A DNA stretch of 64,000 nucleotides, taken from contig CAWJSJ010000004.1 in the NCBI GenBank assembly GCA_963845565.1, positions 160,001 to 224,000 on the forward strand. The letters run 5' to 3'. Each line of letters starts with the position of its first letter. The stretch's first letter is position 1. The position numbers and the translations under genes were made by a program. This document shows, in pieces, positions 17,129 to 35,849 of the stretch. Origin of the DNA: an uncultured Methylomirabilota bacterium. GTDB taxonomy: Bacteria > Methylomirabilota > Methylomirabilia > Methylomirabilales > 2-02-FULL-66-22. A model generated the notes under the pieces. The model saw only the letters and a list, made by a program, of their open reading frames with translations. It was not told where the DNA came from and ran no database searches.

Positions 17129-17161
17129 GTGACCCCGGATGTCACAGCCCTCTTGTATGAT
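17129..17161 (+). promoter_or_regulatory. Palindromic operator plus -10 box (putative WYL-activated promoter 1)
   Basis: GTGAC-CCCGGAT-GTCAC-N10-TATGAT. Confidence 0.7.
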
Positions 17162-17241
17162 CCCGCCAGACGAGAGCCACCAGGGCGGGCGAGCGCGAAT
17201 CAGCGGACGCGGCACCCTGGAGTCAGGGGAGGAGGACACCC

Positions 17242-17420
17242 ATGCGGATGTACGAGCTGTGGAAACGGCGACGCCGGAGCGGGAGCCGCGCCGACTCGAA
17301 GACGCGGGCGGGCCGGTGCTGTTCGACCGGTCCTGTGACGCGGAGGCGTACTCGGCGGAGGATCGGGACCGCTGGGAGGCGCGCTTCACCATCGTGCCGG
17401 TCACGGTCGGCCGGGCCTGA
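17242..17420 (+). CDS. Small hypothetical protein (~59 aa, one apparent frameshift)
   Basis: Strong GGAGGAGG RBS before ATG 17242; lies between promoter 1 and the protease gene. Confidence 0.4.
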
Positions 17421-17471
17421 ATCGGCCGGGGGCACTCGTTGACGCAAACCCCGCAGGACAAGGAGGTGTCC

Positions 17472-18416
17472 ATGACGACTTCCGAACAGCAGGTTCCCAC
17501 GGCGGCGGAGCGCATTCGCGAGGCGGCGGCGGCGTTGGCGCGCCACCGGGGCGGCCCGTGTCTGGTCTTTGTCAGCCGGTCCCTGGTCCACGCGGACATC
17601 CTCACCGTCCGGACCGCGCTCGGGAGTGCCCGCGGGGACCATCTCGATATGATCGTGGCCGGCCCGGGCGGGCGGAGCGAGGCCGCGTACCTCCTCGCCC
17701 GGGAGCTCCGGCGCCGGTTCGCGCGCCTGACGGCCTATGTGCCCTTCGAGGCGAAGAGTGCGGCCACGCTCCTGTGTCTCGCCGCGGACGAGCTGGTCCT
17801 GGGCGACCTGGGGGAACTGGGCCCCCTCGATCAGCAGTACGAGGCGAAGCAGACCGCCGACTACCCTCTGAGCACCTCCCAGCTGCTCCCCGGGGTCGCG
17901 CTCCGTCAGCTCCAGGACGGGGCCACGGCGTGCTATGACGCCCTGGTGCGCCGGATCGTGAAGGAGAGCGGCCTCCGGCCGCTCGAGGCGGGCAGCAAGG
18001 CCGCCGAGCTCGTCGGGACCCTGTATGCGCCCCTCGTCCAGCAGCTCGACCCAACCCGGTTGGCGGAGTGTGCCCGCGGGTTGGCCGTGGGGAAGGCGTA
18101 CGCCGAACGGGTGCTGCGGCGCTACCGGCCCGCCCTCTGGGCGGAATCCGGCCCCCAGCTCCTGGACCGCCTGGTGCAGGACTACGCGACCCACAACTTT
18201 GTCCTCGATCGCGAGGAACTCGCGGAGGTGGGCCTCCCCACCCGGGCGCCCGACGACACGGAGGCGGCTCTGCTGAACCAGCTCGCCCTCGCGCTGATTG
18301 CGTTCGGAACGGACGACGACCTGATCGCCCTCGTGACTGCGGGCCGACGGGACCCCCACGCTGGCGGCTGCCGGTTCCAGCCAGGCGCGGGGACACACGC
18401 CGCGGAAAACACTTAG
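17472..18416 (+). CDS. SDH family ClpP-fold serine protease
   Basis: GPGG, VPFEAKSAATLL, ADELV, LGPLDQQ and YATH motifs; AGGAGG RBS. Confidence 0.8.
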   Translation: MTTSEQQVPTAAERIREAAAALARHRGGPCLVFVSRSLVHADILTVRTALGSARGDHLDMIVAGPGGRSEAAYLLARELRRRFARLTAYVPFEAKSAATLLCLAADELVLGDLGELGPLDQQYEAKQTADYPLSTSQLLPGVALRQLQDGATACYDALVRRIVKESGLRPLEAGSKAAELVGTLYAPLVQQLDPTRLAECARGLAVGKAYAERVLRRYRPALWAESGPQLLDRLVQDYATHNFVLDREELAEVGLPTRAPDDTEAALLNQLALALIAFGTDDDLIALVTAGRRDPHAGGCRFQPGAGTHAAENT

Positions 18417-18767
18417 GGGGCGCGCAGGTCGCACTACATAGAAGGGACGATCTCAATGCGAACTGCGGGACGGCACCGGCGGCTCGCGGCGGTTCTGCTG
18501 TGTGCGGTGATTGTGGCAGGGTGCGCGCTGTGCCGGCTTCATGGTTGACATTCTCACCAAGACACAACACTCTGAGATGCGCCCGGAGTTGATGGAGCGT
18601 TTCGAGCATTCGCTCCTGATCCACGGTGGCGCGCGCTGAACGACTTGGCTGCGGCGTGGCGGCCGTGGCGTGGACTTCAGGGTCCTCCCAGCATCAATGG
18701 CACCGTTTCCGACTAGGCGGGAGGGAGTGCAGACGGTATAATATCCTTACGAGGGACGGTAGGAACA

Positions 18768-18967
18768 ATGATCTATCGTATTGCGCTTCGAGCATCGGAG
18801 GAAGGGTATCAGCGCGTCGGTGCCGGGCTTGCCTGGCTGTTGGTCGCAGGGGGCCACCGAAGCGGGAAGCGCTGGAGAACATCCGGGAGGCTATCCGGGA
18901 GTACCTTGCGGTCGCCGCGGAATTGACCCAGGGTGCCGAGATGCGTGAAGTTGACGTTGCGGTCTAG
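18768..18967 (+). pseudogene. HicB family antitoxin (frameshifted)
   Basis: Across frames: MIYRIALRASEEGY..SVPGLPGCWSQGATE..EALENIREAIREYL. Confidence 0.75.
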
Positions 18968-18969
18968 CC

Positions 18970-19080
18970 ATGGGAAAGTTTCCCGGCATCAACCATCTGG
19001 ATGCCGTCCGCGCCCTCCAGAAAGCTGGTTTCCGCATCGCTCGCCAAGGTAAACACTTGTCATGACTGACGGCGTCCGCA
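18970..19080 (+). pseudogene. HicA family toxin, truncated
   Basis: MGKFPGINHLDAVRALQKAGFRIARQGKH..MTDG, then an abrupt junction. Confidence 0.7.
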
Positions 19081-19323
19081 TGCGAGCGCGGCACCCCGCC
19101 GACCGTGGTCGCGGTCCGATTGTCGTTCACCCGACGCGCGTCATGGAGGACCGAGAACAGCTCCACGACGTCGGGGTCGGCTCACCGTCGTGCGGCGAGG
19201 CGGAGGCCGATCGTTCGCACGCGCGCCCAGTGGGAGATGCCATGGATCCCGTCTCCACTCGAGTCGATGCAGCTGGCGGATCGCGTCGAGGAGCGGGCCG
19301 GTCGACGCAGACGGCCGTGTCAT
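19081..19323 (-). pseudogene. HD-domain protein N-terminal fragment (paralog of 28188-28724)
   Basis: Across frames: GIHGISHWARV..GLRLA...VVELFSVLHDARRVND. Confidence 0.7.
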
Positions 19324-19435
19324 CCGCGTGGGCCTTCAGCTTGCCACCTCGCCCGCTCGGCCAATGGACGCATCGACGCGTAGACTCTGTCGCTCCCTGC
19401 CAGCCGCCAGCTGTCTACTGCCAGCGTCCCCCAGG

Positions 19436-20424
19436 TCACGTCTTGCTGAGAATCCGCTCGGCGGCGCTGCGAACAGCGTCCTTGAGTTCTTGAGGCCGGA
19501 GGATCGTCACGCCGCCGCCGAATCCCAGGAGCCACCCGACCAGCTCCGGCGTGGCGGCGACGGTGAGGGTCATCCGGAGGCGGCCGGTCTTCTGGGGCTC
19601 GAGCTTCTGGCTGGGGTGCCAGGTCCGGTCCTTCACCCAGGCGGTGGTGGCCTTATCGAAGAGAAGCTCGACGGTGACGGGCTTTCCCCGCATCACCCGA
19701 AGAGCGTCCCCGACGTAGGCCTCCAGGTCGAAGCTGAGGGGAAGCTGGAAGGCGTGGTCGGTGAGGGTGCAGCTCCGGATCCGCTCCACGGCGAAGAGCC
19801 GGACGGACTCGCGCAGGTGGCAGTAGGCGACCAAATAGAGTGCGCCGTTCGCGTACCACAAACGGTAGGGGTTCACTTCCCGCCGCGTGGTCTGGTTCCG
19901 GCTGGCGGTGAAATACCGGAGCTGGACCGTCCGGCCCTTGGTGATCGCCTCGGTCAGTTTGTCGATGGTCTCCTTGTGCTGGCGGTAGCTCACGTGAGGA
20001 CCGAGGCCGATGGCGAAGCAACCGTCCAGTTGTTGGAGGTACGCGTGGCCCGGGGCGGGGAGGGCGGTCGCGGCCTTCCCCAGGGCAGAGTCGAGGGATG
20101 CCTGGAGCTGGGTCCCCTCCAAGGGGCGCAGGAGGCCCCGGCTAAACGTCAAGGCCATCAGTTCCGTCGGGGAGAAGGCGAGCGCGGGGATATTGCGGAA
20201 GCCCTCCATCAGCTTCCAGACCACGCCGCGGCCGTCGACCTTCTCCGTGAGGAGGGGGAATCCCGCGGCTTCCAGTGCTTCCAGATCCCGGCGGATCGTC
20301 CGGTGGTGCCGCGTGAAATCGGCGGGGAGTCCGTCCGCCAGCGCCTGGAGCGTCAGCCCTCCCGGGACACCTCGAGGGTGCGGAGCAGGTGCCACTGGCG
20401 GGTGACCTGGTCGTTCCGGGGCAT
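19436..20424 (-). CDS. HTH-WYL-WCX transcriptional regulator; apparent frameshift near 20365
   Basis: MPRNDQVTRQW N-terminus, RTIRRDLEAL HTH, RREVNPYRL, LYLVAYCHLRESVRLFAVERI and WLLGFG. Confidence 0.9.
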
Positions 20425-20825
20425 GCCGACCCTCCCAATTTCGGGGTCCACCTCGCAAATCCGATGTCGTGACGCCCGGGACTCTGACACATTCCCTGGC
20501 CTCGAGCAATCACAGCGTGGCAATTGTCCGCCTGCGTCTGCAACCCGCGGTCGGCCCCAAATGCGCGACACAGATGGGAGCCGTGTTCGGTATGCGGTGT
20601 GAAGAACCTCGGTCGCAGATTGAGCCCGCGCTCGTGCCTGCCCTCGGTGACACGGCGCTCTTCCGGACGCCTCTCCTGTTCGCGTCAGGTGGTGGGGGGC
20701 TCGTGGAAACTCTGCGAGGTTCCCGTGGGGTTAGGGCGTCTCCTTGAGGAGTCGCTTGACCAGTCGGACGAACTCCGTCGCTTCGTCAGGAGGTTGCGAG
20801 CCTCGGTCTCCGCGATGCGGCCCGC

Positions 20826-21522
20826 CATCCAGTCAGAACTTCATCGGCGCACCTGGTGCGACCATTCAGCAGGCCCTCTACATTCCGCCAGAGCCCTCCC
20901 GGGTGCCGGCGTATATGGACAACTGGGAGAAATACTACCACGCGGACGAGCGGGATCCCTTGGTGCAGCTCGCCCTGATCCATGCCCAGTTCGAACTGAT
21001 CCATGCGTTTCTGGATGGCAATGGTCGACTCGGCCGGATCCTCGTCCCGATCTTCCTCTACGAACGGCAGCTCCTCGCTCGGCCGATGTTCTACCTCTCC
21101 GCGTACCTCGAGAGCCACCGCGAGGAGTATGTGGGGTTGTTGCGGGGACTGGACGGGCCGGAGACGTGGAGCCCATGGATCGCCTTTTTCCTGCGCGCCC
21201 TGACCGAGCAGGCGCGGGAAGGCGCCACGAAGGCCAGGCGGATCCTGGCCCTGTACGGGCGCCTCAAGGGCGAAATCCTGGAGTTGACCCATTCCCAGTT
21301 CGCCGTCCCGCTCCTCGACCGACTCTTCCACCAGCCGGTGTTTGCGAGCAGCACGCTGGTTGCCGACAAGGCCATGCCGAGCAAACCCATGGTCATGGCG
21401 CTGCTCCGAAAGCTGCGAGATGCCGGCATCCTGGTGGTGGTCCGCGAAGGGAGCGGCCGGCGGGCCAGATCCTCGCCCTGGGCGAACTGGTGAATCTCTG
21501 CGAAGGGAAGCGGGCTTTCTGA
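20826..21522 (+). pseudogene. Fic family protein, N-terminally truncated, C-terminal frameshift
   Basis: HAQFELIHAFLDGNGRLGR Fic motif; no recognisable N-terminus. Confidence 0.8.
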
Positions 21523-21701
21523 GGAGCGGGGGCCCGGCTGCAGCGATCAATCCCTGTCCTTGCTTTCCAGCGCCCGAGTGCCTCTGCAGTACTGTTGTCT
21601 CCCCATCACGCCATCCCCCCTTTCCGCCTCGTTCTGTTCCTTGCCGGCTACCAGTTGCTGGAAACGCCGGAAGCTCTGCGCATAGCGCGCTCCCAGTCTA
21701 T

Positions 21702-21808
21702 GCAGATGCTGGCGACGTGAAGCCGGCCATCCAGCGGCTCACCGCCTTTCTCGCCGCTCCCGAGGTGGCGGCAGCGACCGACCCTGAGATCCGGGCCACC
21801 CGGCGGCG
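21702..21808 (+). repeat. ~107-bp diverged copy of the vWA gene 3' region (26018-26124)
   Basis: Encodes ADAGDVKPAIQRLTAFLAAPEVAAATDPEI versus ADAGDVKEAIQRLTAFLAAPEVAAATDPEI. Confidence 0.85.
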
Positions 21809-21814
21809 GATCCG

Positions 21815-21996
21815 GTCCGTTTGAGGCGACTCGCGGATCTCGGCAGGCGAGATGGTCTCGCGCTTGATCCGGCCGGAGCGGAGCAGATCGTCAAGCGCCA
21901 TCGGGGGACCCCAGGAGGGGAATCAGTGGGCCGGCGAGGATCCGGGCGACGAAGCTGCCCCGTTCGCGGCGCCGGCGAGCGAATTCGCGGGGCGTC
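21815..21996 (-). pseudogene. Remnant of a nucleotidyltransferase C-terminus plus the start of the next (HEPN-like) gene
   Basis: TPREFARRRRERGSFVARILAGPLIPLLG overlapping MALDDLLRSGRIKRETISPAEI. Confidence 0.45.
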
Positions 21997-22251
21997 AAGG
22001 TCGTCTCCCGGCTGTAAGGAACGTTTGAGCCGACGGACGGCGGCGCGAGCCTCCAGGGACCGAATGGGCTGGGCGAGAAAGGACCGGCCTGCAAAGGGAA
22101 AGCGGCAGAGGGTGGGGACCAGGTCGTCGAACAGGCGGTCGAGGAGGCGATCAAACGCCCCGCGCCCCTCCTCGCCGAGGAAAGTCTGGATGGCCCCAAG
22201 GTTCTCGGCGAAGTTGTGGGTAAAGACCGGCGCGAGCCGCTTACCGGCCAT
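21997..22251 (-). pseudogene. RelE/ParE family toxin, truncated
   Basis: FTHNFAENLGAIQTFL...LCRFPFAGR; overlaps the stop of the upstream antitoxin. Confidence 0.6.
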
Positions 22252-22520
22252 AGCGGGTACGTAACTGACGTACCGTCAGGGTCCGACCGGCCGCGATGTC
22301 GGCATCGCTGCGCGGCCTCGTGGAGAAGAAGCAGGTGGATCCGCTCCCGTTCCAAGCGGTGATAGTACTCCAACCGGTCGGCGCCAATCAGCGCGGCACA
22401 GCTCTCGCCGTTCTTGGTGATCAGTTTTTCGACCGGACCGCCGGACACCTCCTCACACGGTTCGGTGAACTGGGCACGCGCCTTGGTGAGGGGGACAACG
22501 TCTCGTGGCGACAGGGACAT
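22241..22520 (-). pseudogene. Phd/YefM family antitoxin (frameshifted)
   Basis: DVVPLTKARAQF...EKLITKNGESCAALI..., then ADIAAGRT in another frame; AGGAGG RBS. Confidence 0.7.
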
Positions 22521-22677
22521 GGGACACCTCCTTCGCATGGACGGAGGATATGCACTGTACAGGATTCTGTCAAGTCGAGTCACCCACTGGACGCGCACGG
22601 AGGCCCTCGGGTATGAAACAAACCAGGATGGGTGACACCGGTGGGAAAAGCCGTCTACGGGGAGGAGGTCCCTGACC

Positions 22678-22998
22678 GTGAAGAAGACCCGGAAGGTTCA
22701 GCGTTTCACCGTGGTTCTGGAGCGCGACGAGGACGGGTTCTACGTGGCGTCCATTCCGGCCCGCGCGGGGTGCCCCCGGCCGATCACTGGACAGGCCATG
22801 CGGCGCATTCGGGAGGCGGCGGGCAGAGGCTGGAGGTCCGTCGGGAAGGCGGGGCGGATCGCTGCCGACCTTGGATCTGGTCGGAGTCCAGCAGCTCGAG
22901 ATCCCCGCATGACCCGCCTTGCCCCCATCTCCGCCCGCGAGTTGCAGGCAATGCTCTCCCGGCTGGGATTTCAGCTGGTCCGACAGAAGAGGTCGTAA
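22678..22998 (+). pseudogene. Second degenerate HicB plus truncated HicA (from 22909)
   Basis: RFTVVLERDEDGFYVASIPA...RIREA, then MTRLAPISARELQAMLSRLGFQLVRQKRS*. Confidence 0.7.
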
Positions 22999-23490
22999 AT
23001 GGAGAAGGGCACGGTGGAGCGCATCCCTGCCGAGCGCGTTGCGCGGGCGATCGTGCTGGTGCGTGGGCAGCGTGTACTCTTGGACAGGGACTTGGCGGTT
23101 CTGTACGGGGTGGAGACGCGCGTGCTGAATCAAGCGGTACGGCGGAACATCGTGCGGTTCCCGCCGGATTTCCTGTTCAGGCTCACCCGCGAAGAGATTC
23201 GGGACATATCACAAATTGTGACATGTTCGACCATCAAGCACGCCCGCAGCGTGAACGCGTTCACCGAGCAGGGGGTGGCGATGCTCTCGAGCGTCCTCAA
23301 GAGCGAGCGGGCGATTGCGGTCAATATTGCCATCATGCGGGCGTTCGTGCGGCTGCGCGAGACGACGTCTTTGCAGAACGACCTTATCACCAAGCTCGGC
23401 GATCTGGAGGCAAGATCGGACAAGACGCGAGATTCGCACGCTAGTGGACGCCATCCGCCAGCTCATGGCCCCGCCGGAGAAGGCCTGGCG
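22999..23490 (+). CDS. ORF6N domain DNA-binding protein (C-terminal frameshift)
   Basis: VRGQRVLLDRDLAVLYGVET..LNQAVRRN..RFP and AFTEQGVAMLSSVL. Confidence 0.85.
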
Positions 23491-23783
23491 GCCCCCCGAC
23501 GTCCCAAGGAACGCGTCTCGCTGTCCCTGTCGGATATCCCTGTCGCCCCTCGGCTTCGGGTGAGGCAGGGGTCCGGCGTACCGAGTGCGGCGGCCGCGGC
23601 GCCCAGGCGGGCAGTCAGGAGTGGAATAAGATAAACAAATTACGGTCGACGAATTGCTCAGCTCCCCGCAGCGAGCCGCAGCCAGGCCGGTGGCCGCGGT
23701 GTGATTGCGAAGCCGGTTTCACGTGGTATGAAGGTGCCGTCGGTGCACAGATCGCGGGCGCTGAATGGGTCAGGGGGGCAGCC

Positions 23784-24092
23784 ATGACGCTGAGCCGGGA
23801 GGAGCGGGAACGGCTCAAACGCGAGGTCGTGGCCTGTTTGAGCGGCGAACCGGAAGTCCGACGGGTGGTGCTCTTCGGATCGTTCGTGACGAGTCCGACG
23901 CCGCACGACTTGGATGTGGCGGTCTTCCAGGAAAGTGACGAGGGCTACCTGCCCCTCGCGCTCAAGTACCGCCGACTGCTCCGGAGGGTCGCGGAAACGA
24001 TCCCCGTGGATGTCCTCCCCCTCCGCTCCGCTGGGACGACCGGGGAATTCCTGAAAGAGGTGGAGCGGGGCGAGGTGGTGTATGTCCGCTGA
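23784..24092 (+). CDS. Minimal nucleotidyltransferase (MNT) antitoxin
   Basis: VVLFGS...DLDVAV...VDV and GEVVY. Confidence 0.85.
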   Translation: MTLSREERERLKREVVACLSGEPEVRRVVLFGSFVTSPTPHDLDVAVFQESDEGYLPLALKYRRLLRRVAETIPVDVLPLRSAGTTGEFLKEVERGEVVYVR

Positions 24093-24739: not shown

Positions 24740-24772
24740 GTGACCCCACATGTCACACATGTATGGCATCCT
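24740..24772 (+). promoter_or_regulatory. Palindromic operator plus -10 box (putative WYL-activated promoter 2)
   Basis: GTGAC-CCCACAT-GTCAC-N10-CATCCT with an extended TG. Confidence 0.65.
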
Positions 24773-24929
24773 CGTCGCGTCGGCGCTTGAACTTGATTGC
24801 CGATTGCCGATTGATGATTGCCGATTGCTGAACAAAGCGTAAGGCGCTGAGCGCTTAGCGCCAGAGGATTCCGTTCTCTGCCGGCTGCCAACTGCCCGCT
24901 GCCAGCTGGCCCTGGAAGGGAGGCTTCTT

Positions 24930-26243
24930 ATGTCGGAACCCGCATCGCCAAATCGCCAAATTGCCCAGTTGCCGCACGCCGTCCTGATGCGTCTGGACAT
25001 CATCCCCGAACGCCCGTGCCTGCCGGTCGGCGAGGTCACCTCCCTTCCCGTCCTCATCCGCCTCACCGCGCCCACCGTTCCCCAGATGGCCCGGAAGCCC
25101 CTCAACCTCTGTCTCGTGATCGATCGGAGTGGCTCGATGGCAGACGAGAAGCTCCGCCACACCATCGCCTCGGCCAAGTTCGTGGTCGAGCGACTGGCGG
25201 CCACCGACCTCCTTTCGGTGGTCCAGTTCGACGAGCGGGTGAAAGTCGTCATCCCGCCGGGACCCGTGACCGATCGGGCGCACCTCTGCCGTCGCCTGGA
25301 CGGCATCCACGCCGGCGGGCAGACGAACCTCTCGGGCGGCTGGCTGCGTGGCGCGGCCTGTGTCCGGGAGCGGCAGGCGCCCGATTACATCAACCGGGTC
25401 ATCCTGCTCACCGACGGCCAGGCCAATCACGGGATCACCGATCCGGCTGTCCTGGTGAAGCATGCGGCGGAATTGACCGAAGAGGGAATCACCACAACGA
25501 CGATAGGTTACGGCGAAGACTTCAACGAAGATCTCCTGACGGCATTGGCCGATGCCGGCCGGGGAAACGCCTACCACGTCGAGACCGCGGACCAGGCGCC
25601 GACCATCTTCGCGCGGGAATTGGAAGGACTCCTGGCGATCGCCGCCCAGAACGTCCGGGTGACGTTCACCCCGAGCGGTCTCGTCCGGCGGGTGGACCTC
25701 TGTTCAACCATGGAGCACCACCGGGACGGGAGGACCCTCACCGTCACCGTGGGCGATCTCGTCAGCGAGGACACCCGGTCCCTGCTTCTCATCCTCCGGA
25801 CCGATCCCGGGAAGAAGGAGGGGTGGGCGGATCTGGGGACGGTCACCGTCACGTACGACGACGTGGTCGGGGGGATTTGTTCCAGGACCCTCACCCACGA
25901 GGTCGTCGTCGGAGCGATCGCCCCCGCGAAAGTCGCCGCCATCCCGCCGGATGCCGCGGTGGGCAAAGAACTGCTCATCCTCCGTGCCGCGAAAGTCCTC
26001 CAGGCTGCCATCACCGAGGCAGATGCTGGCGACGTGAAGGAGGCCATCCAGCGGCTCACCGCCTTCCTCGCCGCTCCCGAGGTTGCGGCAGCCACCGATC
26101 CCGAGATCCAGGCCGCCCGCCGGCGACTCAAGGAGATGCTCCACGATCTCCAGGATCGGGGGTTCGACAAGATGTCCCGGAAGCACATGGTCTATTCCAG
26201 TCGCGAGTGGACCCAGGGCAGGTCGAAGGGAGGGGCTGACTAG
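24930..26243 (+). CDS. von Willebrand factor A domain protein
   Basis: MIDAS motif IDRSGSM, GQTNL and ILLTDGQAN; GGAGG RBS. Confidence 0.9.
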   Translation: MSEPASPNRQIAQLPHAVLMRLDIIPERPCLPVGEVTSLPVLIRLTAPTVPQMARKPLNLCLVIDRSGSMADEKLRHTIASAKFVVERLAATDLLSVVQFDERVKVVIPPGPVTDRAHLCRRLDGIHAGGQTNLSGGWLRGAACVRERQAPDYINRVILLTDGQANHGITDPAVLVKHAAELTEEGITTTTIGYGEDFNEDLLTALADAGRGNAYHVETADQAPTIFARELEGLLAIAAQNVRVTFTPSGLVRRVDLCSTMEHHRDGRTLTVTVGDLVSEDTRSLLLILRTDPGKKEGWADLGTVTVTYDDVVGGICSRTLTHEVVVGAIAPAKVAAIPPDAAVGKELLILRAAKVLQAAITEADAGDVKEAIQRLTAFLAAPEVAAATDPEIQAARRRLKEMLHDLQDRGFDKMSRKHMVYSSREWTQGRSKGGAD

Positions 26244-27457
26244 AGCTCCGCGAATGGCAGGGCCGTGACGCCCGGGGCGAGCGGCAAGCGGACCTCGCCG
26301 GCGTGAACCACGTAGCCGGGCGCGGCCTTGGTGCCGAGCAGTTCGCGAAAGGCGACGATTCCCGAGGCCATCGCCGGCCGTGGGGTGGCGGAGGTCTTCA
26401 CCTCGATGGGGACGAGAACCGACCCCGTGTCCACGACGAAGTCCACTTCTGCGCCGGTGGAGGTCCGCCAGAAGTACACCTCGGGGTCGATCCCGCGCCC
26501 ACCCAGGCCTTTCACGAGTTCTGCGAGAACGGCGGTCTCGAAGATCGCGCCGGCCATCGGACCGGCGGCCGCGTGGGTCGCGTCCCGCAGTCCGGCCAGG
26601 AAGCACAGGATCCCGGTATCAGTGAAGTACACCTTGGGGGTCTTCACGAGACGCTTGCCGACGTTGGCAAAGTAGGGGCGCACGATCCGGATCTGATGGG
26701 TGGCTTCCAGGACCGAGAGCCACGCCTTGGCGGTGTTCACCGCGACCCCGAGGTCGCGGGCCAAGTCGGTCAGGTTGAGAAGCTGCCCGCTCCGGGCCGC
26801 CAGTCCCCGCAGGAAGACCTGGAAGAGCGTGAGGTCGCCGACCTGGCGCAGGACGCGGACATCCCGCTCCAGGTAGGTTTGGATATAGCTGGCGTGCCAG
26901 AGGGCCGGCTCCCGCTTCGGATGGGCGGCGAGTTCCGGGTAGCCGCCCCGGAGCAGATGTGCCCAGAGGGCGCGAAGGGGCGGGACCTGGCGGAGGGTGC
27001 CGGTCCGTTCCCATGGCAGCGGCCGACCAGGTTCGCCCGCAAGCTCACGATGGGACAAGGGCAAGAGCCGTAGGGTGGCGGCACGACCGGCCAGGGACTC
27101 GGTGATCTGCGCCATCAGGAGCAGGTTCTGGGACCCGGTCAGGAGATACTGGCCCGTGGCCGCCCGGCGGGCGTCGATCCGCTCCTTGACATAGGGCAAG
27201 AGGTCGGGCGCGTACTGGACCTCGTCGAGGATGACCGGCGGGGGATACAAGTCCAGAAAGCCCCGCGGGTCCGCGGCAGCCGCCGCGCGGACGTCCGGCG
27301 CCTCCAGGGACACATACCGGGCGCGGCGGCCGAACAGGCGGGCGAGGAGCGTCGTTTTCCCGGCCTGGCGAGGACCGGTGAGCACCACCGCGGGGAACTC
27401 CCTGGCCGCCTGCCGCAGAACGGGCTCCAGGGTACGAGGGATGTAACGGGTGGCCAT
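26240..27457 (-). CDS. AAA+ ATPase (AAA_14 plus DUF4143)
   Basis: GPRQAGKTT, LDEVQ, LTGS, RGGYP, YLERD, KVYFTDTG and EVDF..IEVK. Confidence 0.9.
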   Translation of the reverse strand: MATRYIPRTLEPVLRQAAREFPAVVLTGPRQAGKTTLLARLFGRRARYVSLEAPDVRAAAAADPRGFLDLYPPPVILDEVQYAPDLLPYVKERIDARRAATGQYLLTGSQNLLLMAQITESLAGRAATLRLLPLSHRELAGEPGRPLPWERTGTLRQVPPLRALWAHLLRGGYPELAAHPKREPALWHASYIQTYLERDVRVLRQVGDLTLFQVFLRGLAARSGQLLNLTDLARDLGVAVNTAKAWLSVLEATHQIRIVRPYFANVGKRLVKTPKVYFTDTGILCFLAGLRDATHAAAGPMAGAIFETAVLAELVKGLGGRGIDPEVYFWRTSTGAEVDFVVDTGSVLVPIEVKTSATPRPAMASGIVAFRELLGTKAAPGYVVHAGEVRLPLAPGVTALPFAEL

Positions 27458-28187
27458 GCGGGCTCTCCTGTCTGTGCAATTATGCATTTGGAGTGCACGA
27501 TTGCAAGGCCAAAATTCACCGGCGGCAGGTGGAACAGGGAGACTGCACTCCGTCTCTCTGACTCGCTGCCTTCTGCCCGCTGGTAGCTGTACTTCAGTCC
27601 CCTGCCAGCTGCCATCTGCCCGCTGCTAGCTGGTCGAAACGATGAGCGGTCGAACCGGATCGGCCGGACGGAGGAACGGCAGGGACGGATCGAGGTGTAC
27701 GACACGCAATCCAACCGCATCGGCGAGGGGGTGCGGCAACCGGACGGCAGCATCGACTTTCGGGACCCGCAGGGGAATCGGATTGGACGCACCGGCCCGC
27801 CGAGCACCGACGGCTCGGTGCGGTTTGACGATGCGCGTCCAACCGCGTCGGGCAGGGCAGGCCCGACACCACGGGGCGCTATCAGTACGAGGACCGGGGA
27901 TCCACCCGGCGCGGCAGCGGCGACGCCTCGGGCCCCGTGTGGCTCCAGCGCGGCTCGCGGAAGTAGGCCGATGTTTCCGACTGCGCACGGAGGCGGGACG
28001 GCGGCATTGGGGCGTTCTTTCCGCGTCCCAGCCCACTGCCACCTGCTTCCTGCCAGCTGGTTTCCATGGTGCCCAACGCCAGACACGTGCACGCGGGTCG
28101 GGCTACGCCCTTGCACCGTGCAGAGGTGTCTGTTATACATCCCACCGGGCTTTCGCCCGTCCTTGGAAGCTTGGAGCTCGACGGCCG

Positions 28188-28724
28188 ATGTCCTCAGACC
28201 TTACTGAGATATGGACAATCCATGCGATTCGGGCACAATACACGCTCCCCTGGCGGGGTACTCACGGCATCACCCACTGGGCCAGGGTGCGAGAGGCGGG
28301 GCTCCGCCTGGCGGCACGGACTGGCGCCAATCTGGCCGTCGTGGAGTTGTTCGCGGTGCTGCACGACGCCCGCCGCCGGAACGAGGGGGTGGACCCCGGC
28401 CACGGCGGGCGGGGAGCGGACTTCGCCGCCACACTCCGGGGCACGCTGATTCATCTCGCCCAGGCCGAGTTCGCGCTCCTTCACACTGCCTGTGCCGACC
28501 ATACCAAGGGGTTGCTCGACGCCGACATCACGATCCAGACCTGCTGGGACGCGGACCGACTGGACCTCGGTCGGGTTGGTACCACACCGGACCCGGCGCG
28601 GTTGTGCACCGCCGCGGCCCGGGATCCTGACATGATCCGATGGGCCGGGCAGCGCAGCGGCGGGGAGTATGTGCCACCGGTGGTGGACCAGGAGTGGGAT
28701 GGGGGGCGGCGCACGCGGAGGTAA
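28188..28724 (+). CDS. HD-domain metal-dependent phosphohydrolase
   Basis: HGITHWARV, LHD, HG.RG and CWDADRLDLGRVG. Confidence 0.85.
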   Translation: MSSDLTEIWTIHAIRAQYTLPWRGTHGITHWARVREAGLRLAARTGANLAVVELFAVLHDARRRNEGVDPGHGGRGADFAATLRGTLIHLAQAEFALLHTACADHTKGLLDADITIQTCWDADRLDLGRVGTTPDPARLCTAAARDPDMIRWAGQRSGGEYVPPVVDQEWDGGRRTRR

Positions 28725-28800
28725 AGGAGTGGGCGGAGTCAATTGGAGGATCGGATGTTTTCGGACGCATGCTAGTTCCAGCTTTTCACCCGGGAACTGA

Positions 28801-28862
28801 GGTACCGGACACCTTTTGACGCGTAACCATTTGATTTCCTTGAAGCGCCAATCAGATTCTTC
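28801..28862 (+). repeat. ~60-bp dispersed repeat, copy 1 (copy 2 at ~33813-33873)
   Basis: GGTACCGGACACCTTTTGACGCGTAACC..GATTTCC.TG.AGCG.CAATC shared between the copies. Confidence 0.75.
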
Positions 28863-28983
28863 TGCCAAATACGACAAGTTGCGCGAGTCCGGCACCTCCC
28901 TGCCTCGCCTACCCGCCACCGCGTGATGGCACGAGGGCGTGCGTGTCGAGTCATCTCGTGGTCGTCGTGCCCGGCGCCAGCAC

Positions 28984-29319
28984 CTATGCGGCCCGGACTG
29001 TGGTCTCCCCGTGCGTCGGAATATTGGTGATCTCTTCCGCCAGTCGGCGTTCCGCATGCCACAGGTCGAATGCCTGCTGGAGTCGCAACCAGAGCCCCGG
29101 TCCGTTGCCGCAGAATTTCCCCAGGCGAACGGCCGTGTCCGGCGTCACGGGCGCCCGGCAGGCCAGAATCCGGTGCAGCATTTGTCGGCTCACCCCGAGT
29201 TGCCGCGCCGCATCGCTTACAGACAGGCGAAGCGCCGGCAGGACGTCTTCCCGCAGAATGGCGCCGGGGTGCGTGGGGGGGCGCTCCAGTCGCCGGTCCC
29301 TCTTTGCGGCTTTCACCAT
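28984..29319 (-). CDS. higA: HigA family antitoxin
   Basis: PTHPGAILREDVL, AARQLGVSRQ and LWLRLQ. Confidence 0.9.
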   Translation of the reverse strand: MVKAAKRDRRLERPPTHPGAILREDVLPALRLSVSDAARQLGVSRQMLHRILACRAPVTPDTAVRLGKFCGNGPGLWLRLQQAFDLWHAERRLAEEITNIPTHGETTVRAA

Positions 29320-29333
29320 CGGACTTTCTCCTC

Positions 29334-30863
29334 CTAGTGATATTGCTCCAGGTTCACCCGCAGCGCCTCGCCATCGATCCACTCGAAGGTGATACACCAG
29401 GGGCCGTTCACGTGCAGACTGAAGCGCCTCGGCCGCCCCCGCAAGGGGTGGAAGTCGAACCCCGGGACATTCAAATCGTTTAGCGCATCGGCCCGATCAA
29501 GCGCATCGAGGCGGCGCAGGGCCCTCGCCTGCAGGTCCGGACGGACGTATGCGCAGGACAGGCGGTTAAGTGAAAACTCTGCTCTACTGGACGGGACGAT
29601 GTGCCGTCCCCCAAGGAGAGCAGCGCATGAAACGTCCCCGACGGAATCACGCCCCCGCCTTCAAGGCCAAGGTGGCCCTCGCGGCCCTGAAGGGCGACCG
29701 GACCCTGGCCGAGCTCGCGCAGCAGTTCGACGTCCACCCGAACCAGATCACGCAGTGGAAGACCCAGCTCCTGGAACGGGCGATGGAGCTCTTCGCCACC
29801 CCGGCCGAGCGCCAGGCCGCCGCGCCCCGACGTCAAGGCCCTCCACGCGAAGATCGGCCAGCTGGCCATGGAGAACGATTTTTTGGCCGGCGCGCTCGGT
29901 CGGCTCCCCGATGCGAGCGGCAAAGCGATGATCAGCCCGCCAGCACCCGCTGCCGGTGACGCGCCAGTGCCAGCTCCTGGCGCTCGCCCGGTCGTCGGTG
30001 TACTACACGCCCCAGCCGGTCTCGGCGGCCGACCCTGGCCCTGATGCGCCAGCTCGACGAGCTGCATCTGGAGTATCCCTTCGCCGGCAGCCGGATGCTC
30101 CGGGATCTGCTGCGGCTCCGGGGCGTGCGTCGTCGGCCGCAAGCACGTGGCCACCCTGATGCGGCGGATGGGGATCGCCGCGCTGTACCGGCACCCCCGG
30201 ACCACCCAGCCCCACCCGGGGCACCAGGTGTTCCCGTACCTGCTCCGCGATCTGCGCGATCACGGCCCCCAACCAGGTCTGGGCCATGGACCTCACGTAC
30301 CTCCCGATGCGCCACGGCTTCCTCTACCTGGTCGCCGTGCTGGACTGGGCGACCCGCCGGGTCCTGGCCTGGCGCCTCTCGAACACCCTGACCACGGACT
30401 GTTGTCTCGACGCCCTGGAGGCCGCGATCCAGGACCACGGCTGCCCCGGGATCCTGAACACCGACCAGGGGAGCCAGTTCACCAGCACCGCCTTCGTCGC
30501 CTGGTCCAGCAGCACGGCATCCAGCTCAGCATGGACGGGCAAGGGCGCCTGGCGCGACAACCTCTTCGTCGAGCGCCTCTGGAAGAGCGTCAAGTACGAA
30601 GAGGTGTACCTGCATGCCTATGACTCGGTGACCGAGGCCCAGCAGGGCCTGGCCCGGTACTTCACCTTCTACAACCAGGGCCGGCCGCACTCGGCCCTGG
30701 ACGGCCGGACCCCGGATATGGTCTACTTCGGCGTGCTGCCTCAGCGCGAGGCGGCGTAACGTGACCCGAGCAGAGTTCCACTTAACGCGCCCCGTTTCCT
30801 GTATGCGCTCTCGCCCGTGTCGAACAGGGCCTTCAGCCCTTTATGCTTGAAGCTGCGGATCAT
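29334..30863 (-). pseudogene. higB: HigB toxin interrupted by the IS
   Basis: MIRSFKHKGLKALFDTGESAY (30863-30801) continues as VRPDLQ...HPLRG..VNGPWCITFEW...EQYH* (29546-29334). Confidence 0.88.
29555..30800 (+). mobile_element. IS3-family-like insertion sequence (orfA from 29627, orfB to 30759, multiple frameshifts)
   Basis: FKAKVALAALKG HTH; W..DLTY, NTDQGSQFT, DNLFVERLWKSVKYE and YNQGRPHSAL; IR core TTAAGTGRAACTCTGCTC; GTATGCGC duplicated on both sides. Confidence 0.9.
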
Positions 30864-31239
30864 CGCGCGTCAGTGTCAACCATCACGTTACACCCTGTCA
30901 AGCGAAATATGACCGCCGGTACCTGGTACCGATGGCGGGACGAGCGAACGGCCCGGTGATGGGTCTCTTGGGGGAAACGGCGCAGCGCTTTCAAGTGCTC
31001 ACCCCGGCCTGCCATCCTATAAGGTATCGCGGCCTGGCCGGGGCGATCCTCGTGAACCTGGAGGTGATCATCCGGGGCGCCGGTTGACGGCGTCGGAGGT
31101 CAGCGGCTGCGCTTTACGTTTTGTGCTCATGGGGGTAAGAGAATTACCCTGGTGATCGCCAAAGGGAAAGTCGGTCGAAAGATGTACTGACTTGACAATA
31201 CTCTCCGTAACTCGCAATATATGGCGTGTTGTGGAGGAT

Positions 31240-32046
31240 ATGAGCAAGTGCCAGTCCTGGATTTCTTTTCCGCACACCCGGTCTTCACGCGGGAGGAGTT
31301 TGCCCACTTCCTGCGGGGGCGATTGGTCAAGTCCGCACGTACTACCGAATCCCACCTTCTGCGATACCTCACCTCAGGGCGGATCGGCCGGGTCAAGCGG
31401 GGCGTCTATTTCAGCGCCGGCCCCGGCGAAACGGCTGAGAACGCTTCGCTCGATTTCCTGTTGGTGGCCAGCCGCCTGACGTCTGACGGGGTCTTGGCCT
31501 ACCACACCGCCCTCGAGGCGCACGGGTACGCTCAGAGCCTTTTCGAGCGGTTGTATTTCCTGACGACGTCCAAGGCCAAGCCGCTGACGTTTCGAGGGCG
31601 CCACTTCATCCCGGTGCTCGCCGTCCGCGGCCCTCCGCCGGAAGAAGAAGGCGTTCACGCTGTCGACCGAGGTCGAGCGGCGAGGGCTGCCGTGTCGGGT
31701 CACCACGATGGAGCGCACACTGGTGGATGTGCTGGACCGGCCGGATCTCGCGGGTGGTTTTGAGGAGGTCTGGCGGTCCCTGTCCAGTGTGCCGCTGTTC
31801 GACCTGAACGTCGTCGTCGACTACGTCCGGCTCTGCGGTCAGGCGACGCTCGCTGCCAAGGTAGGATTCTTTCTTGAGCAGCATCAACAGTCGCTCAGCG
31901 TACCGAAAGACGTCCTGGAGCGGCTCCGCAAGATGCGGCCCAAGCAGCCCCACTACCTGGATCGGCGACTGGGAGGCAAGATGGCGCCCGGGTGGAATCT
32001 GCTGGTACCGGCCGCGATCTTTCCACTTGACGGATATTCCATATGA
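31240..32046 (+). pseudogene. AbiEi-like type IV antitoxin / transcriptional regulator (frameshifted)
   Basis: FFSAHPVFT, RVKRGVY, LAYHTALEAHG and ERTLVDVLDRPDLAGGFEEVWRSL. Confidence 0.8.
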
Positions 32047-32426
32047 GTTATAGTCCTGATACGGAATGGCCGGTCGAATACACGGATGAGTTCGAGACGT
32101 GGTGGGAGCGTCTGACGGAGGCGGAACAGGAGGATGTGGCCGCCAAGGTCATCTTGCTCCAGCGCCTGGGGCCCGCGCTCCCCCGACCGCACGCCGATGT
32201 GGTGCGGTCTTCCAGGTATGCCAATATGAAGGAGCTGCGGATCCAGCATGCCGGACGGCCGTACCGCGTGCTGTATGCGTTCGATCCCCGGCGGTGTGCG
32301 ATCCTGTTGATTGGCGGGGACAAGACAGGCAACGATCGCTGGTACGAGATATTCGTCCCGCGGGCGGACCGGCTGTATGGCGAGCACATCGCGAGCCTGA
32401 GGGGGGAGGGTATGACTGATGGCTAA
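32043..32426 (+). CDS. RelE/HigB-like (Gp49-type) toxin
   Basis: VEYTDEFETWW, GPALPRPHAD, MKELR and RVLYAFDPRR.AILLIGGDK. Confidence 0.85.
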   Translation: MSYSPDTEWPVEYTDEFETWWERLTEAEQEDVAAKVILLQRLGPALPRPHADVVRSSRYANMKELRIQHAGRPYRVLYAFDPRRCAILLIGGDKTGNDRWYEIFVPRADRLYGEHIASLRGEGMTDG

Positions 32427-32736
32427 GAACTTCAAGGCACTGCAGGCGAAGATGCCGCCCGGGGCACGGCTGCGCGCCGAGGCCAAGGCGGATGCCATGC
32501 TCCGATCGATGTCCCTGGACGAGCTCCGCGAGGCGCTGAACCTCACCCAGGAGGAGCTCGCCAATCGCCTCCAGGTGAAGCAGCCGGCCGTCGCCAAACT
32601 GGAACGGCGCGAGGACGTTCGGTTGAGCACGCTTCGGGCTCTCATCGAGGCAATGGGGGGACACATCGAAGTGCGTGCGGTCTTCCCTCAAGGCACCGTC
32701 GTCCTGCGGCAGCCCAGCGAATCGCAAGCCGCGTGA
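32419..32736 (+). CDS. XRE/HTH antitoxin
   Basis: LDELREALNLTQEELANRLQVKQPAVAKLE; overlaps the toxin stop. Confidence 0.88.
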   Translation: MAKNFKALQAKMPPGARLRAEAKADAMLRSMSLDELREALNLTQEELANRLQVKQPAVAKLERREDVRLSTLRALIEAMGGHIEVRAVFPQGTVVLRQPSESQAA

Positions 32737-32810
32737 GCGATTGGCTATGATGATTTCCCGCGTTTCAGCTCATCGGTAACCTCCCGGCAGAGCCCAAGGA
32801 GGTGTGAGGC

Positions 32811-33050
32811 ATGGCGATCAATCCTATCGCCTCCGCCCGCGCGGTCAACGAGCAGTTCCTTCGCTATCAGCTCACCGCCTTTCCTCTCGCCGACGAGGCG
32901 GTGTCGCGGCAGGCCGACGAGGGCATCCGCTCGCCCGCCAAAGCCTTCCGGGTGGGCCCCCGAATTCGGGACCTCGTGACGCAGGAGGTCCTCCACCCAG
33001 CGTTCCCCGGCATCGTCGAGTATCCCGACCTGGTCGCGCACCAGGATCCC
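32811..33050 (+). pseudogene. N-terminal fragment of a large DEAD/DEAH helicase (up to the Q-motif)
   Basis: MAINPI...EQFLRYQLTAFPLAD...LVAHQ; AGGAGG RBS; no Walker A follows. Confidence 0.5.
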
Positions 33051-33090
33051 GGGTCGTCGATCCGGGAGCCGGCCGAGGGAGACGAGGGCC

Positions 33091-33831
33091 ATGGCGCGTG
33101 ACAACCAGGGGTTCATTTCAGGCGTCCACAATTACTGCGACCGGTGGTGCGAGCGCTGCCCCTTCGCCAGTCGGTGCCGCGCCTACGCCATGGAGATGAG
33201 CATCCGGATCGACGGCTTCGACGGCGAGCTGACGCAGGCCGCCGAGGGGTTGTCGGCGGAGTCGGCAGGGGAGTGGCGTGAGGAGAATTTCCTGGCCGAG
33301 GCCGAGGAGGAAGTCACCGACGCGGAGATCGAGCAGGAGGTGCTGGCGCGGGACGTCGCCCATGCGCTGGCCGAGGTGCACCCGCTGGCCGTCGACGCCG
33401 ACCGCCTCGCGGAGCTGGCCGGGCCGCTCCTCGGCGCGGCCGATGCCGTGTTGACAGCCGGCGGCGACGAGGCCGAGGCCTTCCGGCATCCCGTCGAGGT
33501 CTTGGCGCACTACAAGTATTTCGTGGCCGCAAAGGTCCGCCGGGCGCTCTCGGGTCGGGAGGAGCCTCCGATCCTCGACGACGACGGGCGTCCCTTTCCC
33601 TCCGACGCGGATGGCAGCGCCAAGGTCGCCGCCCTGGCCTGCGCCGCCGCCCGGGATGCCGCCCAGCGCCTGGCAACGCTGGATCCGACACTCACCTCCC
33701 TGGTCGCTCCCTTCACGCGGACGGCCGACCGCGTCCTGGTCCTCCTCGACGCGGCGTTCCCCGGCCATCGCGCCTTCCGCCGCCCCGGCTTCGACGATCC
33801 GTCCGAACGGACGGTACCGGACACCTTGTGA
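33091..33831 (+). CDS. Hypothetical protein with an N-terminal Cys cluster
   Basis: FISGVHNYCDRWCERCPF, DADGSAKVA and C-terminal AFRRPGFD. Confidence 0.75.
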   Translation: MARDNQGFISGVHNYCDRWCERCPFASRCRAYAMEMSIRIDGFDGELTQAAEGLSAESAGEWREENFLAEAEEEVTDAEIEQEVLARDVAHALAEVHPLAVDADRLAELAGPLLGAADAVLTAGGDEAEAFRHPVEVLAHYKYFVAAKVRRALSGREEPPILDDDGRPFPSDADGSAKVAALACAAARDAAQRLATLDPTLTSLVAPFTRTADRVLVLLDAAFPGHRAFRRPGFDDPSERTVPDTL

Positions 33832-33928
33832 CGCGTAACCCGTGGATTTCCCTGGAGCGACAATCCCGTTCTTGTCAGGCGTCGGCCAGAGAATGGCCGG
33901 GCCGATCGGAACCGACGGAGGCTGATCA

Positions 33929-34130
33929 GTGTCGGTGCGGCCGCAGGGGCTCCGAGTGTGCTGCCCAAAGAAGCCCGACTGGGGCGTGGGCCACGTCCTA
34001 TCCGACGACGATGGGGCGATGGTCACCGTCTTCTTCCTAGGACGCGGGAAGCAGAGACTGGATACGCGCATTGCTGAGCTGGACCTCGTGACCGGCCCAG
34101 CCGCGGTAAATCCGGTCCACGATCCACTTT
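33929..34130 (+). pseudogene. DUF3553-like SH3-fold fragment
   Basis: RV.CPKKPDWGVGHV...VTVFFLGRGKQRL. Confidence 0.45.
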
Positions 34131-34338
34131 GGAAGAGCCAGCCCCCTCCCGGCGATCTCACGGATCTGCGCCACGCGTGGCGAGTGAATCGCAGTTGCCA
34201 CGCAGGTGCGACGTTGGTACACTGCAGATCGGCTAGGGACAGGAACCGGAAGAGCAGGTATCCCGTGGCGCAGGAACGTGTCGGGGTGGACGTTGCGCGT
34301 GCGACCGAAGAGGGATCATTCTTGCGGACGATGACGCC

Positions 34339-34680
34339 ATGACCACACCTCGGACACTGGCCCCGCAGCAAACGGCGGCCCTCGAAGCGTTCGCCGGAGG
34401 GGTGCGCAGCCTCCTGGGCGACCGCCTTGTGGCGCTGAAGCTCTTCGGCTCCCACGCCCGCGGCGACGCCGGCCCGGACTCCGATCTGGACGTCCTTGTA
34501 CTGGTGGAGGAGGCGACTCCCACTCTGGAGAACCACGTCCTGGACCTCGCCTTCCACGTGAATCTGGTGCATGACGTCTATATTTCTCCCCGGGTGATCG
34601 CCCGACGCATCTTCGAGGATCCCGTCTGGCGCAGTACCCCCTTCATTCGCGCTCTGGAAACGGAAGGGGCAGCTCTGTGA
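34339..34680 (+). CDS. Minimal nucleotidyltransferase (MNT) antitoxin
   Basis: LFGSHARGDAGPDSDLDVLVL. Confidence 0.9.
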   Translation: MTTPRTLAPQQTAALEAFAGGVRSLLGDRLVALKLFGSHARGDAGPDSDLDVLVLVEEATPTLENHVLDLAFHVNLVHDVYISPRVIARRIFEDPVWRSTPFIRALETEGAAL

Positions 34681-35081
34681 AGCCGGAGCTCGCGGCCCTG
34701 GCGCGGCACCGCCTGGCCCAAGCACACGAAACCCTCGCCGAGGCGGAGCAACTCCTCGCCAGTCAGGCGCTCCGGGGTGCGGTCAATCGATTGTACTATG
34801 CGGCGTTCTACGCCGCACGCGCCCTGCTGGCCCTTCGGGAGGTGGACGCCGCCCGACACAGCGGTGTCATCAGTCTCTTTCAACAGCACTACGTCAAGAC
34901 GGGCCTCGTCGCCGCGGAGACGGGCAAGATCCTGGCTCGCGCCTTCGAGAAGCGGCAGAACTCCGATTATGAGGATTTCGCCACGGTCGAACCCGCCGAC
35001 GCCCAGGATCTCGCCTCTGCCGTGCAGACCTTTGTAGACACCTGCAAACTACTCCTCGATCGGTTGCTCCGAGACGTGTGA
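34677..35081 (+). CDS. HEPN domain protein
   Basis: AVNRLYYAAFYAARALL, HSGV and RQNSDY; GTGA overlap with the MNT gene. Confidence 0.9.
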   Translation: MKPELAALARHRLAQAHETLAEAEQLLASQALRGAVNRLYYAAFYAARALLALREVDAARHSGVISLFQQHYVKTGLVAAETGKILARAFEKRQNSDYEDFATVEPADAQDLASAVQTFVDTCKLLLDRLLRDV

Positions 35082-35093
35082 ATCTGATTTCCC

Positions 35094-35126
35094 GTGACCT
35101 CAGATGTCACACCCTCGCGGTATCCT
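35094..35126 (+). promoter_or_regulatory. Palindromic operator plus -10 box (putative WYL-activated promoter 3)
   Basis: GTGAC-CTCAGAT-GTCAC-N10-TATCCT. Confidence 0.7.
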
Positions 35127-35812: not shown

Positions 35813-35849
35813 GCGGGGGATCCGCCCAGGCCGGGTGGGGAGGGCCTGA

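Follow-up and report, generated by a model that had tools for sequence, protein, structure and literature searches.

A conserved palindromic box marks predicted WYL-activated promoters

Three copies of a palindromic promoter element lie in a 64,000-nucleotide stretch of DNA from an uncultured Methylomirabilota bacterium (assembly GCA_963845565.1, contig CAWJSJ010000004.1, positions 160,001 to 224,000; this whole stretch is called the window below, and positions follow its own numbering). Judging from sequence comparison, these elements are quite probably the binding boxes of a DriD-type activator of the WYL family, which would turn on weak sigma-70 promoters of scattered accessory and defence genes. 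All three boxes are on the forward strand. Box 1 (17129..17161) consists of the palindrome GTGAC-N7-GTCAC at 17129-17145 and the -10 hexamer TATGAT at 17156-17161, with a predicted transcription start at about 17168; Box 2 (24740..24772) combines the palindrome with the hexamer CATCCT (24767-24772, predicted start about 24779), and Box 3 (35094..35126) with TATCCT (35121-35126, predicted start about 35133). The palindrome occurs only these three times in the window, compared to a mean of 0.05 and a maximum of 1 in 100 shuffles, and the gap to the hexamer is exactly 10 nucleotides (nt) each time. At the -35 position the sites read CCCCGG, CCCCAC or CCTCAG. Compared with TTGACA, all three match at 0 of 6 bases at 17-nt spacing and at no more than 3 of 6 at 16 or 18 nt, whereas canonical -35 boxes are present in other promoters of the same island. 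The flanks of the three sites are unrelated over 200 nt upstream and 250 nt downstream (local scores 15-28). An earlier reading of the same DNA (the original prediction) had described these palindromes with their hexamers and without a recognisable -35 box, and had considered them a conserved site and not a duplication; all of this was borne out.

The consensus of the box is (T)GTGACCYYRGATGTCACA, with the -10 hexamer 12 nt past the downstream GTC and the -35 absent, and the 7-nt spacer is conserved, asymmetric and G+C-rich. The bare palindrome is not enriched across the 5.36-Mb genome (18 occurrences at N7 in comparison to 16 at N1 and 13 at N13), thus the signal requires the conserved spacer and the -10. 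We scanned the genome with a matrix trained on 111 sites from other genomes only; the training pattern included the -10, and nine chance-like coding-region loci with unlike spacers were excluded from training. Six sites scored 33.4-40.6 bits (Boxes 1, 2 and 3 at 40.6, 33.4 and 37.8 bits, respectively), the next best match reached 10.7, and nothing in the reversed genome exceeded 18 bits. The original prediction had called for such a scan and had asked whether the motif is frequent at random: the bare palindrome is common genome-wide, but the full matrix with spacer and -10 separates six clear sites. Those beyond the window are at C2:641021, C2:2613462 and C5:964411. The recA and lexA genes are both present in this genome and the scan found a box at neither locus, and likewise none upstream of the WYL gene. 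Weak false matrix matches, genome-wide, come from a dispersed ACCACAGATTTCACAGAT-like repeat.

The spacing of box and -10 hexamer matches DriD and PafBC promoters

The distance to the -10 is also maintained in sites that were collected without using the -10 in the search. In one such set of 16 sites a TANNNT hexamer is placed at N10 in 13 and at N9 in 2; in another, of 44 metagenome sites, a YANNNT hexamer is at N10 in 26, with 7 for the next offset. An extended -10 TG is present in 40/82 sites, a set partly picked on the -10. The window sites read GTC-AC-N10, i.e., 12 nt from GTC to the -10, which matches DriD promoters and the PafBC motif. The DriD site, ATACGAC(X)7GTCGTAT, covers the -35 position of promoters that lack a -35, and its distance to the -10 is fixed at a single value (PMC13004042). 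The promoter presented there reads, by our own count, GAC-N7-GTC-N12-CAATCT, and its optimised TTGACA lies 17 nt before CAATCT. The PafBC motif, tGTCgg-N10-tA-N3-T, has the same 12 nt from GTC (PMC8635444). The likeness to these two activators that had been suggested originally therefore extends to the geometry, since GTC-N12-(-10) without a -35 is found in all.

The box accompanies two clades of WYL genes

The window WYL gene belongs to clade A. Clades A and B were defined on a quick IQ-TREE tree of WYL proteins with support from the Shimodaira-Hasegawa-like approximate likelihood-ratio test (SH-aLRT) only; the counts below treat related genomes as separate, and most Nitrospiraceae genomes are incomplete. 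In stretches picked by the WYL gene alone, a box adjoins nine of the ten clade A genes, whose identity to the window WYL protein is 65-88%, and six of the seven clade B genes, for which it is 29-33%. Around 23 other WYL genes (313 kb) there is no perfect palindrome, neither near 10 paralogues of 36-44% identity (153 kb) nor near 13 distant WYL genes that include kin of the gene at C2:560366 (160 kb), the latter being the second of the two WYL-domain matches of this genome, on another contig. The box thus co-occurs with this WYL clade, as anticipated in the original prediction.

The same link was seen in larger collections. Searching 61 genomes of the order with a loose pattern produced 36 matches, spread over 21 genomes, compared to 7 for the reversed pattern; the loose pattern was present in 12 of the 15 genomes with a clade A or B gene versus 9 of the 46 others. 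Five of these nine (G003, G020, G022, G057 and G059) have matches that lie within coding sequence or overlap it and that have unlike spacers; such matches were rejected as chance. The remaining four have apparently real orphan sites. Among 121 Nitrospiraceae genomes, the pattern is found in 42/58 with clade A and in 7/63 without it. Persistence of the box in relatives without this WYL gene had been named as a point that would speak against the proposed regulator; such relatives are mostly box-free, but a few genomes retain the box with no cognate WYL gene found. One of them, a genome listed as 99% complete (G033:C45), contains two perfect boxes and no match to the WYL query, the WYL family itself not having been searched there.

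Of 390 metagenome WYL loci, the best 80 were searched for the strict palindrome without the -10, and 43 contained it (reversed sequence, 0); many of the 37 palindrome-free loci are short contigs. A GTDB-wide search with the strict pattern returned 40 loci, mostly from Nitrospirota but also from Methylomirabilota, Desulfuromonadaceae, Binatia, Tectomicrobia and Acidobacteria, with a WYL gene within the stretch in 12/40. Five boxes are present in the complete genome of Nitrospira defluvii (G061), whose only WYL-domain match is of clade A. Viral contigs gave 15 pattern matches, none confirmed as a clade A relative, and the strict box was absent from them; in plasmid and phage collections all WYL matches were below 60% identity (21-32% among the matches listed). 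On a 2-kb contig labelled Patescibacteria (L103), which is probably mis-binned, there is a WYL gene of clade A almost identical to the one in G030. No description of the box or the clade was found in a literature search that mostly lacked subscription papers and excluded supplements such as the DriD-homologue motif table of PMC10853764.

The WYL protein resembles DriD in its fold and recognition helix

The predicted box binder is encoded on the reverse strand at 19436..20424 and has a helix-turn-helix of the winged type (wHTH), a three-helix bundle (3HB), a WYL domain (PF13280) and a WCX domain (PF25583). The HTH-WYL-WCX domains were thus assigned correctly from the beginning, but the gene is not a single open frame: its frame changes near 20355, in the wHTH region, between the first helix and the recognition helix. 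An AlphaFold2 model was made of the intact G004 orthologue, which is 88% identical to the window protein (predicted local distance difference test, pLDDT, 80.3; predicted TM-score, pTM, 0.50). The best Foldseek match of this model was DriD (8TP8, E 2e-16), followed by PafBC (8e-15), while BrxR and CapW were found at 4e-8 and weaker. The full-length profile match of the WYL protein to DriD has an E value of 8e-18.

In helix 3, RTLRRD aligns with RTAERM of DriD, such that R42 and R46 are the equivalents of DriD R37 and R41, and R45 is placed at DriD E40. R42 and R46 are invariant in 11 clade A proteins. In DriD, R37 and R41 read guanines, and E40 reads the flanking C (PMC10853764). By analogy, a homodimer of the WYL protein would read GAC-N7-GTC with R42 and R46, and R45, replacing E40, may set the preference for GTG/CAC flanks and so account for the changed flanks. 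If it acts as DriD does, the dimer would occupy the -35 position and recruit RNA polymerase to the promoter.

The box precedes a variable set of genes

Behind Box 1 lies a conserved small open reading frame (ORF) of 59 amino acids (aa) at 17243..17420, on the forward strand like all target genes of the window. It is frameshifted near 17266, while its homologues, 41-94% identical and under the same box, are intact; the family has no match in Pfam, NCBIfam or PADLOC and no convincing one in the ESM Atlas (only below 0.9). It is followed by an SDH-type ClpP-fold serine protease (17472..18416, open frame; PF01972, E 2e-9), in which S96, D120 and H241, candidate residues that we take to be the catalytic triad, are invariant across four homologues. 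Box 2 precedes an open frame for a vWA-domain protein (24930..26243; PF00092, E 1e-19), whose homologues start at the position equivalent to 24987. GATTGCC-type short repeats in its leader (24795-24830) show high depth from contigs of other organisms. Box 3 precedes a TPR protein (35174..35849, frameshifted near 35750), which corresponds to the C-terminal part of a TY-Chap3-TPR fusion of relatives, and a DUF2779 protein (35990..37472; PF11074, frameshifted near 36690) with a Cas4-like or TM0106-like nuclease N-terminus (Cas4-like, E 6e-9; the TIGR03491 match is below its cut-off). These are the downstream genes originally named.

All three units recur under the same box in other genomes. The 59-aa ORF with the SDH protease is found behind it at five loci (L044, L059, L060, L066 and L157), and the same vWA family, 75-93% identical, is directly behind the box and beside WYL genes at five others (L134, L177, L179, L181 and L182). 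TY-Chap3-TPR and DUF2779 follow the box in L076, where DUF2779 is 80% identical to that of the window, and in L158 and L159 a distance of 1.5-1.8 kb separates DUF2779 from the clade B box ahead of it. Other first or near-first genes encode a second vWA family, MerR-VIT-vWA, ARPP-1, cas7 of type I-G, cas6, hsdM, DinB, a PD-(D/E)XK nuclease, Fic, ORF6N, SurE, an AAA ATPase and small repeat proteins. Three of the four hsdM loci of N. defluvii have a box ahead of them, at distances of 132 nt, 328 nt and about 1.2 kb; the fourth has none within 1.5 kb. In G062 a box precedes the only hsdM locus. The three window units, originally viewed as one co-induced set, are therefore not a fixed system but a sample of a target set that is variable and open. 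NCBIfam does not name the window targets as a system. We slightly favour anti-invader defence, together with some repair, as the output of the regulon; for the window's own targets, a defence role is suggested through guilt by association only.

Several further observations concern the loci behind the box. The first gene is frequently one for a small protein with a signal-peptide-like start and NP-rich repeats (L078:6104-6433, L089:4812-5243 and a large number of Nitrospira loci), in many cases immediately ahead of type I restriction-modification (RM) genes; these small proteins have no Pfam or NCBIfam match and an Atlas score below 0.8. In G036 a single box (L057:1501) has a DinB-type polymerase gene on one side and, on the other, a DUF2779 gene in divergent orientation. 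Boxes also precede AddB-like PD-(D/E)XK nuclease genes in L156, where a helicase-like gene is next, and L079; these units may serve either repair or defence. In a number of Nitrospira loci (L086, L087, L098, L105, L067, L096, L080 and others), a further promoter-like element is conserved some 100-300 nt behind the box; it consists of CCCTAG...CTAG and then GGACG...TTCTTGSTACAGTG, stands ahead of a small Cys-rich ORF, and perhaps represents the site of another regulator.

Evidence against the activator model and the state of the circuit in this assembly

Not all observations agree with a DriD-type activator acting on these boxes. The frameshifts described above affect four of the six circuit genes (WYL, the 59-aa ORF, TPR and DUF2779), two of the six sites of this genome have no clear or intact target, and the window's three targets have no PADLOC system match except for the Cas4-like similarity in DUF2779. 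Orphan boxes are present in G002, G006, G013 and G033, seven Nitrospiraceae genomes without clade A still carry the box, the exact pattern is absent in 16 of the 58 with clade A, and the co-occurrence counts overstate the link, since kin are not independent. In the protein itself, the position equivalent to R37 is E in clade B, with an R directly before it, yet the box is the same; a shift of register is possible. Finally, although five contacts of DriD to single-stranded DNA (ssDNA) are kept (Y168, S172, R178, Y192 and R204, with W206 replaced by F), DriD R207 corresponds to A212 and Y240 to M245, R288 is P in the window gene (P or R in the family), and the alignment of R176 is ambiguous. As R207A and Y240A impair DriD (PMC10853764), the ligand is less certain than the binding site. 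By analogy, ssDNA arising from damage or infection would be a fairly likely trigger, and another nucleic-acid ligand is possible. With R207 and Y240 replaced, the nucleic-acid sensing put forward in the original prediction is less sure than was implied.

The frameshifts raise the question whether the circuit is functional in this assembly. Because the WYL gene is frameshifted, the regulon may be silent here, and nearly as likely as not the boxes of this genome are relics of a decayed regulon, with the regulator a pseudogene and nothing induced; such decay is compatible with DriD-type activation in the family as a whole. Frameshifts in four of six circuit genes contrast with a background of 5/84 genes elsewhere in the genome, as judged against the proteins of relatives, and the DUF2779 frame change was established against three homologues. 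The site at C2:2613462 (L001) retains a box, part of the vWA leader and the first codons but no vWA gene, and is thus a relic copy, while the box at C2:641021 (L003:5091-5471) precedes a 126-aa ORF resembling the N-terminus of a 444-aa AAA ATPase of G011; decay therefore does occur in this genome, and the island holds toxin-antitoxin (TA) and transposase fragments. The G011 ATPase, itself behind a box, is weakly IetA-like. Against decay, all six boxes still score 33-41 bits, and three of the four indels are in or beside short G or C runs. Indels in short homopolymer runs are typical of long-read errors. The extra base at the WYL site is also present in contigs of three other runs, one of which otherwise differs at 1/175 positions, and this likewise counts against decay; the extra base near 17266 was seen in contigs of 4/4 runs compared. 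These contigs represent other populations and not this assembly. Twenty sequencing runs sharing sequence words were compared, none of which had half of the words, and the sole RNA run had a share of 0.06. We consider decay and mis-assembly of the circuit about equally probable.

Alternative explanations of the box

It could be argued that the WYL protein binds the box as a repressor, in the manner of CapW or BrxR, and that a ligand releases the promoters. Defence islands are the usual setting of these two proteins (PMC11662680), the WYL factors of systems with ADP-ribosylglycohydrolase (ARG), vWA and ARPP are called negative regulators (PMC9503650), and a box over the -35 position could block the polymerase. 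Nevertheless, a promoter without a -35 leaves little to repress, and other promoters of the island do have canonical -35 boxes. The fixed distance between box and -10 is that of activators, in fold the protein resembles BrxR and CapW less closely than DriD and PafBC, and no box is found upstream of the WYL gene; repression thus appears unlikely. We think it similarly improbable that another host factor (CRP/FNR-type, LexA, an ECF41 sigma factor or the second WYL protein) reads the site and the clade A gene is a bystander. The halves of the CRP consensus are TGTGA and TCACA, with N6 between them. The box halves resemble these, but in the box they are arranged as TGTGA-N9-TCACA, and the CRP/FNR alternative, which the original prediction itself had raised, fails on spacing. 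TGTCACA is also the -35 element of ECF41 promoters (TGTCACA-N16-CGTC; PMC3426412), but their -10, CGTC or TGTC, is found in only 0, 4 and 3 of 98 boxes at 15, 16 and 17 nt, and this candidate was rejected as well. The orphan sites and the second WYL gene at C2:560366 would agree with another reader of the site; on the other hand, only 7/63 Nitrospiraceae genomes without clade A have a box, the 13 distant-WYL loci with kin of the second gene have none, and the lexA and recA loci are box-free.

The palindrome could also have no regulatory role and be a site of recombination or a cassette boundary that moves along with mobile gene units. It is located at the borders of gene units in variable islands, often a few bases from the WYL stop codon, and its 7-nt spacer is conserved and asymmetric. 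However, a -10 stands at a fixed offset even when it was unused in the search, an extended -10 TG is present in 40/82 sites, the boxes precede the units instead of flanking them in pairs, and the 28 island proteins scanned include no integrase, only transposase fragments. Hence, we regard this explanation as very improbable, and a DriD-type WYL activator continues to be the reading that we prefer.

Other genes of the island

The variable island holding the three sites has its left edge at a transfer-messenger RNA (tmRNA) gene, which ARAGORN places at 16460..16809 on the forward strand. Directly after it stand two near-identical terminator hairpins (16813-16842 and 16892-16917), possibly the scar of integration at the 3' end of this gene. 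Apart from the three target units and the WYL gene, the island contains TA genes, nucleotidyltransferase-HEPN pairs, Fic, ORF6N, transposase fragments and an AAA_14-DUF4143 gene (26240-27487, reverse strand), which matches the PADLOC candidate PDC-S01 (E 4e-117) and is not behind a box.

Comparison with known WYL systems

The closest mechanistic parallel is DriD of Caulobacter crescentus (PMC9186387, PMC10853764, PMC13004042). The wHTH-3HB-WYL-WCX fold, the GAC-N7-GTC core, the box over the -35 position, GTC-N12-(-10) without a -35 and the R37/R41 equivalents are shared. However, identity is about 22%, the flanks are GTGAC/GTCAC in place of CGAC/GTCG with E40 changed to R, the spacer is G+C-rich and conserved and not AT-rich, R207 and Y240 are not kept, and the targets are island genes instead of didA, recA, recJ, dnaG and bapE. 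Judged by these differences in flanks, E40 and targets, the WYL/box system would work like DriD without being its orthologue. Mycobacterial PafBC (PMC8635444) similarly has a downstream half tGTC at -26 (GTC-N12-TA), no -35 and a two-arginine readout, but it is a heterodimer with a non-palindromic site and a core damage regulon, unlike the single clade A gene and the palindrome described here. As one gene is paired with a palindrome, sigma adaptation is less likely than a DriD-type assembly.

DdaA of Moraxellaceae (PMC12392091, PMC13010146) is the closest precedent for the targets: it is a homodimeric WYL activator with a box before RM, CRISPR-Cas and repair genes, and it activates RM and CRISPR via a different box (PMC12392091). 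Its site, CGWCA-N5-TGWCG, is located about 50 bp upstream of where transcription begins, and it controls recA, ssb and uvr, whereas in the present case recA and lexA are box-free and the regulator is patchy across phyla. SiwR of Mycobacterium smegmatis (PMC10693628) is also a homodimeric WYL activator, with a 19-bp imperfect palindrome that needs the -26 region and a small local regulon; it differs in its GGA triplet at -26 and its single neighbouring dinB-like operon, while we observe several dispersed sites per genome and variable targets. CapW and BrxR (PMC11662680) are wHTH-WYL-WCX proteins with palindromic operators at defence loci, but they repress and are released by ssDNA; the structural match is weaker here and the promoter geometry is of the activator type. 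Finally, the ARG-centred conflict systems, which combine WYL or Nudix regulators, vWA, TY-chaperones, restriction endonucleases (REase) and ARPP (PMC9503650), are similar in that vWA, ARPP-1 and TY-Chap3 are found directly behind the box, yet no ADP-ribosylglycohydrolase is present among the 28 island and 44 target proteins scanned. The available part of PMC9503650 assumes repression by WYL and names no binding site.

Significance

The mechanism of activation is already known from DriD, and DdaA already ties a WYL activator to RM and CRISPR. Beyond this, we tentatively suggest that a horizontally spread WYL clade may serve as a dedicated defence inducer across Methylomirabilota, Nitrospirota and other phyla. 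Independently of SOS, it would turn on type I restriction, CRISPR-Cas genes and a group of unknown effectors, perhaps in response to a ligand other than plain ssDNA, and its box would label new defence genes (the 59-aa ORF with SDH, two vWA families, TY-Chap3-TPR with DUF2779, ARPP-1 and repeat-containing small proteins with signal-peptide-like starts). If the DriD-type interpretation is true, the GTC-N12 to -10 geometry would be common to DriD, PafBC and a third lineage of WYL proteins, whose flanks are its own, and this shared geometry would give a rule by which the WYL regulons of uncultured phyla can be found. It would also mean that a WYL activator is aimed at the defence genes of islands and not at recA or lexA, and it would challenge the assumption that WYL genes beside vWA/ARPP systems repress. 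A tractable case is Nitrospira defluvii, with five boxes, a single WYL-domain match and a box ahead of three of its four hsdM loci, and the box nominates uncharacterised genes as candidates for phage defence.

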